Positions 3,086 to 7,463 of a DNA stretch of 64,000 nt are shown here, one piece after another (within the stretch, counting starts at the first letter, position 1; each line of letters begins with the position of its first letter). The position numbers and the translations under genes are program-made. The notes below the pieces were generated by a model that did not search any database, was not told where the DNA came from, and saw nothing but the letters and a program-made list of their open reading frames with translations. Source of the stretch: Dictyostelium fasciculatum (lineage: Eukaryota); contig NW_004457695.1 in assembly GCF_000203815.1 (NCBI RefSeq), forward strand, positions 1,360,054-1,424,053, given 5' to 3'.

Positions 3086-3319
3086 AAAAATATTAAAATA
3101 CTTGGAGTAAAAGTTGGATTGAGACCAGCAAGAGATGAAATTAGATTAGAGAGTGAATTCCATCAAGATGGAAGAAAATTACTTGTTCACAACTATGGTC
3201 ATGGTGGAAGCGGTTTCACTGTTAGTTGGGGTTGTGCAGTTGAGGTTTTGAAACAACTTGAACATAATATACCAAAATTAAAACTTGATTCATTACCAAT
3301 CATTCAAAGTAAACTTTAA
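3086..3319 (+). CDS. D-amino-acid oxidase, terminal exon
   Basis: VGLRPARDEIRLE...HNYGHGGSGFTVSWGCAVEV is the conserved DAO C-terminal HGGxG motif. The stop is at 3317-3319. Confidence 0.8.
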   Translation, partial: KNIKILGVKVGLRPARDEIRLESEFHQDGRKLLVHNYGHGGSGFTVSWGCAVEVLKQLEHNIPKLKLDSLPIIQSKL

Positions 3320-3526
3320 AAAAAAAAATAATAAATATAAATATACATTGTAATACCTATCATCTATCTATATGTTTATAGAATCGAATGAATTAAACTC
3401 TAGAGTTTAGAAAGAAATATTAAGAGGTATGATTACTTAAATTAATAATCAATAACGCAGAGAGTTTATCATGAAAATGATGGTTTAATTTATTTATATT
3501 ATTTGACCACAATCACTAAAAAGTAT

Positions 3527-3815
3527 TTAGTAACTACTAATTTGTGGAGTGTAGAGTGGCATGTTTTCATATCTAGAGTATTGACCAGTGAAAGTGTTGA
3601 ATTGTACGAGGGTGTTGGTTGCCGATGTGGGATTGTCAGTTGGCTTGCAACCAGAGCAGAGAACATTGAACTTGCCACCTGGATAAGATTCCTTGGTGAA
3701 TCCAAAGGCACAGGATTGTGGAATATTGTTCATGTTGTAATAATAACCAGTCTTTAATACACCATCATCACTCTTGAAAATATTGGTGGCACAGATAGCA
3801 GCACCAGCATAGAAA
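3527..3815 (-). CDS. Secreted protein of a dictyostelid-specific family (paralog A), terminal exon
   Basis: FYAGAAICATNIF...TGYYYNMNNIPQSCAFGFTKESYPGG...YSRYENMPLYTP is paralogous to the plus-strand gene at 5711-6829. Confidence 0.6.
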
Positions 3816-3901
3816 CTATTAAAAAAAAACACAACAAGTTTAATATATATATTCTAAAAATAATCATAATCATAATAATTATGATAATAATGATTACATA
3901 C

Positions 3902-4062
3902 TCTGAAGCGATTTGTGATTCAGTGGCGATGGCAGCACCAAAGAGATTGGTACAGATGGCGGCTGCTGGAGTATTATCATTGGCTTTGACACTGAAAGTT
4001 TCAGTCAAGATACTAGTTGGGCCAACAGAAACCGAGTTAGCATTCCAATAACATCTGTTTCT
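3902..4062 (-). CDS. Paralog A exon
   Basis: RNRCYWNANSVSVGPTSILTETFSVKANDNTPAAAICTNLFGAAIATESQIAS resembles RNAGYW... in paralog B. The 5' junction phase does not close with canonical GT-AG, so this may be a pseudogene or a splicing error on my part. Confidence 0.45.
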
Positions 4063-4143
4063 CTATAAAATAATAAAAAAAATTGGTATTGTTAAAATCG
4101 ACAAACAAATAATATTATGTAGTTTAAATGTTTTTAAACATAC

Positions 4144-4302
4144 TTGGGATACCAAGGAATCCTTGAGCTGGCTTGAAACCAAAACAAATGAAACCAACTG
4201 CTTGGGTACCACCAACTGCTTGGAGTGCACCTTCAAATGGTCTAACAATAACATATTTACCAGCAGCTCCAGTACGGTCATCATGCAAATAACCAAAATA
4301 TT
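4144..4302 (-). CDS. Paralog A exon
   Basis: KYFGYLHDDRTGAAGKYVIVRPFEGALQAVGGTQAVGFICFGFKPAQGFLGIP resembles KLVRPIAQAVEIYSSSVANAGFICFGTKPILGYQG in B. Confidence 0.55.
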
Positions 4303-4376
4303 CTATAAGATAAATATAATTAGATTATTTAGAGGCAATAGCTATATTTTATATTTTATATTTTTATTATACATAC

Positions 4377-4550
4377 TCCATTCATAGCTAGATGGATACG
4401 GAATACTCATTTGAGAATCAAGTTCATTGTAGCTCACCTTTCTGCCACCAACTTGGGAGCATACCTCTTGGGCAAAGGCACCATTGTCATTGGCGATTGG
4501 CACATTTGACAAAAAGGTTGCATTGGGCATGTACAAGAAATATTCAGCAC
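4377..4550 (-). CDS. Paralog A exon; the upstream first exon is unresolved
   Basis: GAEYFLYMPNATFLSNVPIANDNGAFAQEVCSQVGGRKVSYNELDSQMSIPYPSSYEW. It follows an acceptor AAAATAG, and no signal-peptide exon was located upstream. Confidence 0.5.
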
Positions 4551-5326
4551 CTATTTTAAAAAAAAAAAAAAAGAAAGAAATAAAAAAGAGGAAAAACTAT
4601 TGGGAGAAAAAAGATAGGAATTGCTTAAGTAGACTAATGCAAAGATGTTGATCAAAAAGTATGAATTTTATTCAGTCTAAATAAAATAAAGAGAAAAGTA
4701 TAGCTTTCATATCACCTTGGGGTTCTGAAAAGTGTTTATTATGACAGCAGAGCATGACCATGTCCCGCGTGATCCAAATTGATGTCTGAACAAAGATATT
4801 TAAAAAAAACTGGTCAATCAGATTTTAATTGAAATGCTCAAAACGAAAGTTTTTATCGTCTTTTGATTTTAATCTATTGGCCAACCTCATTTTCCCTACC
4901 ACGTCAGTAGTCCCAATAGTTCACCTTGGTTTGTGGGCATAGTGAGGTTTACGATAGGCCTAAAAGGTGATACATGTACCTTTGATAAAAAATAAGAAAA
5001 CAAATGAAATGATTGGATCCCTTTGGCAGCTGAGAATCAGAGTCTACGTCAGCACTTTGATCCCCAATAGAATCCTTTCCTTTGCACTGTTTCCAGTGAC
5101 TATGTTCAGTGACCAGTGACTTTGGGAAAAAAAGGAAAGCTTGTACAAAAGAAATGATTAGAAAATTAATTTAATAACAATTCTAAACCCATCAGATAAC
5201 TATTTAAAGTGCTAATTTTTGTTTATTGATTCCAGTATAATAATTTCAATTCAACAAATACATTCTCTTCTTTCCTACCAACCACATCAACAACTAAACA
5301 ACAACTTTTCTGTTATTTTCACAACA

Positions 5327-5393
5327 ATGAGATTTTTACTTGCTCTTATTGTATTTGTCTGTTTGGCTTTCCAATCAGCTTATGCTCAAATTG
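5327..5393 (+). CDS. Upstream copy of the signal-peptide exon (MRFLLALIVFVCLAFQSAYAQI); possible alternative first exon or orphan remnant
   Basis: Its donor GTAATT at 5394 leaves phase 1, as the downstream copy does, so it could splice to the exon at 5877. Confidence 0.35.
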
Positions 5394-5710
5394 GTAATTA
5401 TAAAAGATATAATGTTTAATATTAGAGATACAGATATTCATAAACTAATATAATTTATTATTATTTCTCTTTTGGGAAGTCAAGCTGTTCATCGTGAGGT
5501 TGGAAAGGAAAAGGTTGTACAAGAAAGAGTCAAAAATGATTAGAAATTAAATTTAATAACAATTCGAAATCCATCAGATAACTATTTAAAGTGCTAATTT
5601 TTGTTTGTTTGATTCCAGTATAATAATTTCAATTCAACAAATACATTCTCTTCTTTCCTTTCCAACCACATCAACAACTAAACAACAACTTTTCTGTTAT
5701 TTTCACAACA

Positions 5711-5774
5711 ATGAGATTTTTACTAGCTCTTATTGTATTTGTCTGTTTGGCTTTCCAATCAGCTTATGCTCAAG
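5711..5774 (+). CDS. Secreted protein paralog B, exon 1 (signal peptide)
   Basis: MRFLLALIVFVCLAFQSAYAQ. The donor GTAAAT is at 5775. Confidence 0.75.
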
Positions 5775-5876
5775 GTAAATAAATTCCTTTCTTATCTTTC
5801 CGATTCTAATAATAATATTTGTTTTTTAAAAAATATTCTAACTCTTTTGTTTATTTTATTATTTTTTGTTCTATAG

Positions 5877-6198
5877 AATTCTTTTACTATCAACCAAATG
5901 GTAATTTTTCATCTGCTACACCACAAACCGACCTTGCCAATATTCATGCCAAGGTTTGTAAGCTCGTAGGATCCCAACCAGCAACCCTCTCTGTCTTTAC
6001 CTCTGCTGTTAGTGCTGGAAACGACAACTCCAAGTATGAATGGGCCCTCTATGGTTGGATCAATGATCCAAGTACCACCTCTTACAAGTTGGTCAGACCA
6101 ATTGCCCAAGCCGTTGAAATTTATTCTTCTAGTGTTGCCAATGCTGGTTTCATCTGTTTTGGTACCAAACCAATATTGGGATACCAAGGTGTATTAAA
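5877..6198 (+). CDS. Paralog B exon 2
   Basis: The acceptor follows CTATAG. EFFYYQPNGNFSSATPQTDL...GFICFGTKPILGYQGVLK. The donor GTATGT is at 6199. Confidence 0.7.
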
Positions 6199-6290
6199 GT
6201 ATGTTATTTTACATACAACAATTCAATTGCAATCATGATTTTTAAAAAAAATACTAATAAATTTTATTTTCTAATCTCTTTTTCTTAAAG

Positions 6291-6601
6291 GCGTAATGCT
6301 GGATACTGGACTCCAAATGGTGCCATCCTCAAGGAAGTATACACCGTTGCTCCTCCAGCTGGTTACACTGATATCAATGTTTTGGCAACTGATTGTTTCA
6401 ATGGTGGTACTGGTGCCATTGTTGCCATGGTCAACCCTATCAGGGAAAACTTTTACCAAAACTCTTCCATCTGTGTCAATTCCTTGTATTTTGATAACCT
6501 TGGTCAAGAAGCCAGAGTTGGATATTACTTTGGTGTTAGAAACATTGCTGGATGTGCCTTTGGTTTCCACGACAATCCATACACTTCTGGTGTTATTGCT
6601 G
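6291..6601 (+). CDS. Paralog B exon 3
   Basis: RNAGYWTPNG...RVGYYFGVRNIAGCAFGFHDNPYTSGVIA. The donor GTATGT is at 6602. Confidence 0.7.
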
Positions 6602-6680
6602 GTATGTATTGAATGTATATTTACAAAGAAAATATTTTACTAAAAAAAGTATACTTTTTTTCTTTCTTTTTTTCTTTTAG

Positions 6681-6829
6681 CCGGTCTCTGTTATGGTCCA
6701 AAGCCAGTTCGTCCCTCTTACACCTATAACTCTAGAACCATCAATATCGGTAGTTTCAATAGTATGATTTCAAAATACTCTAGATTCGAGAATATTCCAA
6801 ACGCCTATCTTGTCAAAAGTTTACCTTAA
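6681..6829 (+). CDS. Paralog B terminal exon
   Basis: GLCYGPKPVRPSYTYNSRTINIGSFNSMISKYSRFENIPNAYLVKSLP, then a stop. Confidence 0.7.
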
Positions 6830-7142
6830 ACTTTAAAACATATAAATAAATAAAAAAATAAATAAACATTTCTCATTCGAGTGAGTGGTATTATCTAATA
6901 TATATATATATAATTTATTTGTTTTTAAATATTAAATGATTTATTTACAAAGTTATTTACAATTAATTGTTATTAAATAAAGAATTGATTATTTCTATTA
7001 GTTTTTTTTTAATTTGTTATCTTTTTTTTTTTTTTAGTTACTACCAGAACCAATCTTTTCTTCTTGTGATTTTCTCCTATTTAAATTTAATTTTTTTATT
7101 ATTAATAATAGTTAATAATAGTAAATATATATCTAGTTTTCT

Positions 7143-7463
7143 CTATACATACAAAATTTCATCATCATATTTATTTCTTTCCCAAGCAGGATGTTTAGCA
7201 TCTGGGATGATTGGATTTTTTAAGACAATCGGAGTGGATGCTGAAAAGGTAGCCAACATACCCTTGCTACCTCCCAAACCAGCTTGAGTAACGTCCTCTA
7301 CGCTACCACTCTTTTCCATTCTTCTATTGCCTCCTTCAGTCAGACCTCTCTTTTTTTGTTCATAGCCACTTTGCTTGAGAGCATCACTCCCCAATACATC
7401 TCCCCACCATACCTTCCAATCTCCTGTCCATTGGTTCCATCCATAGTTTGTATTTTTTGACAT
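7143..7463 (-). CDS. Hypothetical small Trp-rich protein (106 aa), single exon
   Basis: The ORF is uninterrupted, with a non-repetitive composition and ordinary codon usage. No family was recognised. Confidence 0.4.
   Translation of the reverse strand: MSKNTNYGWNQWTGDWKVWWGDVLGSDALKQSGYEQKKRGLTEGGNRRMEKSGSVEDVTQAGLGGSKGMLATFSASTPIVLKNPIIPDAKHPAWERNKYDDEILYV

Follow-up and report, generated by a model that had tools for sequence, protein, structure and literature searches.

A small inversion may have parted a divergent Link-module gene of Cavenderia fasciculata from its promoter and signal exon and set them before its paralog

Small inversions are a known source of pseudogenes: once a breakpoint in intron 1 has split off the promoter and first exon, what remains of the gene decays. 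In genes with tandem promoters and alternative first exons, two units, each with a TATA-like element, a leader, an ATG and a first exon of the same phase, stand before a shared exon 2. A further known system is the concerted evolution of the 5' ends of genes for secreted peptides. In this paper, we describe a locus that is similar to each of these in part. It comprises two genes of the amoebozoan Cavenderia (Dictyostelium) fasciculata, DFA_08144 (gene A, protein P0004) and DFA_08145 (gene B, protein P0001), on a stretch of 64,000 nucleotides of contig NW_004457695.1 (positions 1,360,054 to 1,424,053 of the forward strand). This whole stretch is called the window, and all positions below refer to it; it is AT-rich, and its introns are short. 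We consider it probable (roughly 60%) that an inversion of about 0.8 kb cut the promoter and signal exon off gene A and set them before gene B, and that A is now a pseudogene.

Compared with the small-inversion pseudogenes, the piece that would have been inverted here is very small (about 0.8 kb), and it would have come to lie directly before the near-identical promoter and first exon of a paralog, in the same phase, so that the neighbour could adopt it. The likeness to tandem-promoter genes lies in the two complete units before one second exon. Here, however, the upstream unit would have been captured from a paralog and would not be a duplicate of B, its use is putative, and the products would differ by one residue. 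As in the concerted evolution of secreted-peptide 5' ends, a sharply bounded block of nearly identical DNA stands beside gene bodies that have diverged widely. The difference is that the conserved block of this locus includes non-coding upstream DNA, which argues for an exchange of sequence rather than for selection on the signal peptide alone.

A preliminary description of this DNA, made from its letters, had presented A and B as a head-to-head pair of related genes. This is borne out: A occupies 3527-4550 on the minus strand and B 5711-6829 on the plus strand, and their proteins are about 34% identical. The four-exon model of B yields a protein of 281 aa with 100% identity to the hypothetical protein DFA_08145. 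The blocks GFICFG, RN.CYW, GYYY..CAFGF and SRYEN, which had been pointed out as conserved, are present in the minus-strand body of A, which encodes the mature part of a double Link-like protein. It had also been reported that the intron positions differ, and two introns of A (after YEW and after IAS) are indeed without a counterpart in B. Conversely, the B intron after GVIA has no counterpart in A. Common to both genes are the phase-1 intron behind the signal exon and another intron at the KRN site.

When B was used in a search of 5.8 billion proteins, only DFA_05165 (P0002, 59% identical) and DFA_05164 (P0003, 39% identical) were matched besides DFA_08145 itself. These two have consecutive locus tags and lie on another scaffold. 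Comparison of the mature parts sorts the proteins into an A-type pair, DFA_08144 and DFA_05164 (62-63% identical), and a B-type pair, DFA_08145 and DFA_05165 (58% identical), with 33-35% identity between the types. The genome holds two A+B cassettes, DFA_08144/08145 and DFA_05164/05165, and a tblastn search found no additional copy of the family within the window. The family is made up of four genes, all of them in Cavenderia fasciculata.

Although identity between the mature parts is no higher than 34-63%, all family members have a near-identical 5' module in common, with a promoter-like region, a leader and a signal-peptide exon of 21 aa. At the protein level, DFA_05164 from the other locus has the same signal peptide. 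Before gene B, the module stands twice in tandem. The preliminary description had recognised the repeated segment but had drawn it too wide, at 5101-5420 and 5480-5775; the two copies cover about 5118-5389 and 5496-5773. They are about 270 bp long and about 96% identical, with a period near 383 (blastn E = 1.8e-110). In the coding part of exon 1, 62 of 63 positions agree (98%), as do 169 of 177 (95.5%) in the approximately 175 nt upstream of it. Outside the block, over 106 bp to each side, identity falls to the background level of about 53%. The block is thus sharply bounded and far exceeds both its flanks and the gene bodies in identity, as is typical of a gene-conversion tract. Since this high identity extends to non-coding DNA and ends at sharp edges beside bodies that are about 34% identical, we infer from the DNA comparison that the modules have been kept alike by gene conversion.

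The first exon of the upstream copy encodes MRFLLALIVFVCLAFQSAYAQI plus G and ends in a phase-1 donor, GTAATT, from 5394; that of B encodes MRFLLALIVFVCLAFQSAYAQ plus G and ends in the phase-1 donor GTAAAT. Both first exons (5327-5393 and 5711-5774) can be joined to the exon at 5877 with a full reading frame, in agreement with what had been noted earlier. If the orphan exon were transcribed and left unspliced, 5327-5419 on the plus strand would encode a signal-peptide-only peptide of 30 aa, MRFLLALIVFVCLAFQSAYAQIGNYKRYNV, followed by a stop codon.

The last codons of the two first exons indicate to which gene the upstream copy belongs. It ends in ..GCT CAA ATT G^GTAATT (^ marks the exon boundary), one codon longer than the ..GCT CAA G^GTAAAT of B. 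The intact A-type gene DFA_05164, the protein of which begins with MRFLLALIVFVCLAFQSAYAQLGAEFFLYMPN, reads AQLGAEFFLYMPN (AQLGAEFFLY) at this place. The B-type proteins begin with ...SAYAQEFFYY or ...SAYAQEYFYY and do not have the extra codon. On the minus strand, exon 2 of A follows the acceptor AAAATAG^ and starts with GT GCT GAA TAT, in phase 1. Splicing the upstream copy to this exon in silico gives AQIGAEYFLYMPN (AQIGAEYFLY), in which the extra Ile codon ATT stands where DFA_05164 has Leu; residues 1-23 of DFA_05164 match 5327-5395 at 95.7%. Because its AQI+G end, when joined to exon 2 of A, mirrors DFA_05164, the upstream copy appears to be the first exon of A itself, placed on the strand opposite to the body of A.

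This differs from the explanation first put forward, a recent tandem duplication of the promoter and first exon of B, with A having lost its own first exon separately. The tandem arrangement of the copies, their identity of about 96% and the two phase-1 donors that fit the exon at 5877 all agree with such a duplication. However, the similarity of the modules stops exactly at CAA, and the stretches behind the two copies are unrelated, which is not expected from a simple tandem duplication of one contiguous stretch, as this should have left some likeness there. Moreover, the upstream copy bears the extra A-type codon, as does DFA_05164, and a further, unexplained loss of the 5' end of A would be required. 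Duplication is not the best reading of the copies, and we regard it as decidedly improbable.

On its own strand, gene A lacks a promoter, a start codon and a signal peptide. That A has no signal-peptide exon had been observed before, and when the minus strand was scanned between 4551 and 5700 for an ATG-started, signal-peptide-like exon with a phase-1 donor, there was none. The scan returned only the annotated MRLANRLKSKDDKNF and one further non-secretory candidate; it is on the plus strand, at 5327-5393, that the matching A-type exon is found.

The body of A carries a second lesion, as its exon 3/4 junction is damaged relative to the paralogs. The strong pair, consisting of the donor A^GTATGTTT (exon end at 4144, GT at 4143-4142) and the acceptor TTTTATAG^ (exon from 4062), is out of frame. 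This part of the earlier account is correct, but the statement that the junction cannot be closed in frame with canonical GT-AG was too strong, as the weak donor TAT^GTTTAA (GT at 4139-4138) and the acceptor ATAGAG^ (AG at 4062-4061, exon from 4060) do so. When all GT-AG pairs around the junction were listed, only three in-frame, stop-free solutions were obtained, two of which use this weak donor. The third removes the conserved GFICFG block and was rejected as implausible. Splicing with the weak pair produces SIN in place of the KRN that is invariant in the other three members, so that the only plausible rescue turns KR into SI. As a guess, the ancestral junction may have been A^GT...AG^AG AGA, in which case A would have lost two bases, AG. 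Apart from this K and R, A retains all residues that are invariant in the family.

The weak pair is also the choice of the official 276-aa model of DFA_08144, which could be reproduced exactly with minus-strand exons at 4890-4845 and at the four coding positions of the A body in Table 1. If this model were right, DFA_08144 would be a working gene for a non-secreted protein that starts at 4890 (MRLANRLKSKDDKNFR) and depends on the weak GTTTAA donor. The model has canonical GT-AG ends at all introns and is in frame, and the body of A is well preserved. Its N-terminus, however, has no signal peptide, although all three paralogs possess one, and the A protein has retained the cysteines that are conserved in an extracellular fold with disulfide bonds. 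Compared with the GTATGT and GTAAAT donors elsewhere in these genes, C^GTTTTG and TAT^GTTTAA are weak, the invariant KR is lost, and the minus strand has no promoter-like module. We thus consider it very improbable that the model describes a functional gene. The exon at 4845-4890 does not encode a signal peptide and is probably a makeshift of the gene finder, and the whole model, which combines a first exon without secretory character with a weak splice that rescues the frame, was probably put together by the gene finder from a broken gene.

The missing own-strand promoter, start codon and signal peptide, together with the lesion at exon 3/4, support the earlier suggestion that A is a young pseudogene, and this is its most likely status; a cause can now be proposed. 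The lesion would be recent, because the distance to the B-type proteins is the same for A and DFA_05164 and A keeps nearly all invariant residues. That A has not diverged faster means either that the event was recent or that the gene is really intact.

In the ancestor, A and B would have stood head to head. Then one segment of about 778 bp, bounded near 4622/4623 and 5400/5401, would have been inverted in a single event, and with it the promoter and exon 1 of A and the intergenic spacer. The cut would lie 7 nt inside intron 1 of A, and the outcome would be two tandem promoter and signal-exon units before B, with 5401..5495 as the old intergenic part that stayed beside the promoter of B. At its distal end (4611-4622), the A intron remnant reads AATTCCTATCTT and agrees with positions 8-19 of intron 1 of B. 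When the donor stub GTAATTA (5394-5400) is rejoined to the remnant from 4622 downward on the minus strand, the resulting sequence, GTAATTAAATTCCTATCTTTTTTCTCC, is identical to the start of B intron 1, GTAAATAAATTCCTTTCTTATCTTTCC, at 22 of 27 positions without a gap, and undoing the inversion restores an intron 1 of 79 nt for A. The 12-mer AATTCCTTTCTT, with at most one mismatch, has only 8 occurrences on both strands of the window. Because of the anchored 27-nt match and the scarcity of this 12-mer, we place the exact breakpoints near 4622/4623 and 5400/5401 with modest confidence. The inversion would also predict that intron 1 of DFA_05164 begins like GTAA.TAAATTCC. The tetranucleotide AATT is found at both edges of the segment (4619-4622 and 5396-5399), and the proposed breakpoints show no inverted repeats beyond it. 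A tandem ancestor, with A followed by B on the same strand, was considered less parsimonious and rejected, as two rearrangements would be required.

Several points weigh against the inversion. The locus was read from genomic sequence and protein comparison alone, and what an intact A-type gene looks like, namely its ancestral orientation, its true intron 1 and its KR junction, is inferred rather than seen. In an alignment of the whole A intron remnant with intron 1 of B, 372 of 1000 shuffles scored as well, the sequence being T-rich, so that the short anchored match (12-mer and 27 nt) alone was retained as breakpoint evidence. The 260-codon body of A has no stop codon and no excess divergence compared with its paralog, which would also fit an intact gene that was misassembled. 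In that case, the true orientation of about 4623-5400 would be the opposite one, A would be intact and encode a secreted protein beside B, and a minor sequencing mistake would account for the frame problem at exon 3/4. The genome assembly is based on dideoxy and 454 reads (PMC5282741), so that small indel errors and local misjoins are possible. Once the segment is flipped, gene A is complete, its intron 1 has a normal length of 79 nt, and the modules, about 96% identical, become a 270-bp inverted repeat, which is hard for cloning and assembly. On the other side, both junctions (4622/4623 and 5400/5401) lie in unique sequence outside the repeat, so a mis-orientation would require chimeric reads at both ends, and the assembly is backed by a fosmid map and primer walking (PMC5282741). 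Furthermore, no single-base error restores KRN at exon 3/4, as two bases would have to be added, or one removed with loss of the Lys. The two defects of A are unrelated, and decay fits them better than two unrelated errors. An assembly artefact is in our view rather unlikely, and we prefer a genuine inversion followed by decay of A. The features of the locus are collected in Table 1.

Table 1. Positions of the features discussed, in window coordinates (^, exon boundary)
Feature	Position	Strand	Remarks
Body of gene A (DFA_08144)	3527..4550; coding exons 4550-4377, 4302-4140, 4060-3902, 3815-3527 (stop codon included)	-	minus-strand reading; alternative exon ends 4144 (strong donor) and 4062 (strong acceptor)
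Damaged exon 3/4 junction of A	4060..4144	-	all GT-AG pairs listed
Remaining 3' part of intron 1 of A	4551..4622	-	polypyrimidine tract and acceptor AAAATAG^, phase 1
Putative inverted segment	4623..5400 (778 bp)	.	would hold spacer, A promoter-like region and leader, signal exon, 7 nt of intron 1
Spacer	4623..5117	.	CCCAATAG site cluster and two ACGTCAG...CCCAATAG pairs
Official first exon of DFA_08144	4845..4890	-	reads MRLANRLKSKDDKNF; donor C^GTTTTGAG
Orphaned A-type 5' module	5118..5393	+	TATA-like CTATTTAAAG 5200-5209, leader, ATG 5327, exon 1 5327-5393
Unique stretch between the modules	5401..5495	.	about 53% identity (background) to the matching positions beside either module
5' module of gene B	5496..5774	+	TATA-like CTATTTAAAG 5582-5591, ATG 5711, exon 1 5711-5774
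Gene B (DFA_08145)	exons 5711-5774, 5877-6198, 6291-6601, 6681-6829 (stop codon included)	+	GT-AG at all introns
Body of gene B	5877..6829; exons 5877-6198, 6291-6601, 6681-6829	+	translation = P0001

The captured unit could be of use to gene B. Its first exon can be spliced in frame to exon 2 of B across an intron of 483 nt, which would add one Ile after the signal peptide. Phase and frame fit, and the upstream unit may serve as an alternative first exon of B.

The spacer upstream of the A-type module (4623-5117) contains no open reading frame (ORF) above 55 aa, no gene and no match to transfer RNA (tRNA) or Rfam models, that is, no known RNA gene; in scans of the whole of 3300-7100, tRNA and Rfam matches were likewise absent. 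Judging from its sequence, the spacer is probably a regulatory region of the A-type module. Exact CCCAATAG sites are concentrated around it: three of the four in the window lie within 474 bp, from 4597 to 5070 (4597-4604 on the minus strand, 4912-4919 and 5063-5070 on the plus strand), with about 1.75 expected in the whole window. The heptamer ACGTCAG, similar to a half-site of the cyclic AMP response element (CRE), precedes both plus-strand CCCAATAG sites (at 4901 and 5046) and has 5 copies in the window. Lying upstream of the A-type module, CCCAATAG and ACGTCAG are candidates for regulatory motifs.

The proteins themselves carry hypothetical annotations, and neither B nor the conceptual A protein was matched by the Pfam model of the Link module, Xlink (PF00193), even at E <= 1, or gave any other real Pfam hit. 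Link modules are the hyaluronan-binding domains of aggrecan, link protein, CD44, TSG-6 and LYVE-1 and are best known from animals; hyaluronan is not known from this amoebozoan. A profile built from the four paralogs was compared with 1.84 billion representative proteins and had ten outside matches (E = 3e-15 to 2e-4). Nine of the ten pass the gathering score of Pfam Xlink, and the tenth, P0012, lies just below it (25.1 vs 27 bits). Alignment of the family with the Xlink proteins by hhalign gave a probability of 98.1% (E = 8.4e-14, 209 columns), and one intermediate, P0013, matches the link modules of aggrecan with E = 2e-15. At the level of profiles, the family is thus homologous to proteins that carry Xlink domains. 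It aligns end to end with double-Xlink proteins, and the common columns comprise W, D, G.C.G.KP and W/Y.

Structure prediction pointed in the same direction. An AF2 (AlphaFold2) model from the wider alignment reached a mean pLDDT (predicted local distance difference test) score of 71; as Xlink proteins were part of this alignment, the fold is not an entirely independent finding. A model made with just the four paralogs had a score of 34 and was unusable. A Foldseek search with the former model retrieved the G1 region of aggrecan (E = 2.4e-5) and the Link module of TSG-6 (template modelling (TM) score 0.76, root-mean-square deviation (rmsd) 2.5 A), so that the predicted structure has the alpha/beta Link fold, which is C-type-lectin-like. 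A sequence search of the PDB with the family profile gave a chance hit only.

Like the described Link-module proteins, the family has two tandem modules of about 120 aa, with the motifs E[VF]F at the start, C..G..A(T), W..G[WY]..D, G..C[FY]G.KP and FN..[WY]S, and both the profile-profile and the fold comparisons lead to aggrecan G1 and TSG-6. In contrast to those proteins, it is missed by the Pfam model, and module 1 has no second disulfide pair: module 2 holds all four cysteine positions, whereas module 1 retains the outer pair only (C49 and C115 of B), the inner pair being replaced. From profiles and predicted fold, the four genes are best described as encoding putative secreted proteins with two very divergent tandem Link modules.

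One member, DFA_05165, has a C-terminus (...KPWYAQIFWLNKPSRKYFSITGTVPKSINIFID, residues about 285-317) that runs about 33 residues past the end of the other three, which may be due to a missed stop codon or a splice-site error of the annotation. The nearest relatives outside C. fasciculata are metagenome Xlink proteins, encoded on two contigs at L001 2219-4348 and L002 2161-2751. The genes of these contigs are tightly packed and have no apparent introns, and the neighbours include eIF-1a, a polynucleotide kinase-phosphatase, a RING protein and a methyltransferase. The contigs look giant-virus-like. It is quite unlikely that all of the following hold together: that the inversion is real, that B has adopted the captured promoter and signal exon (splice 5393^5877) and that the Link family came from a giant virus.

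The locus tags of the family were not found in the searchable literature, including the supplements of dictyostelid transcriptome papers. Next to the pair, a gene on the plus strand (window about 3089-3319) converges on the 3' end of A. Its product ends in ...HNYGHGGSGFTVSWGCAV...IIQSKL, matches the C-terminus of the Pfam DAO family of FAD (flavin adenine dinucleotide)-dependent oxidoreductases (E = 4e-5), and its terminal SKL is a peroxisomal targeting signal. Downstream of B, on the opposite strand, lies a single-exon ORF of 106 aa (MSKNTNYGWNQWTGDWKVWWGD..., 7143-7463, minus strand).

The processes considered here, namely inversion, the birth of a pseudogene, gene conversion and possibly promoter capture, are all known. 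The locus does not overturn current understanding, and the gene family is restricted to one lineage; what it would offer is an ordinary kind of rearrangement in unusually clear detail. For four proteins that were annotated as hypothetical, a description as divergent proteins with tandem Link modules is now available. Their promoter and signal-exon modules have remained nearly identical between paralogs, with mature proteins that have drifted to about 34% identity. The locus may further provide a base-level example of how one inversion of less than a kilobase could both kill a gene and pass its promoter and signal exon to a neighbour. If this is true, the use of the captured unit by gene B would show, while it is happening, how an alternative first exon can arise when a gene takes over the promoter of a paralog that has lost its 5' end.

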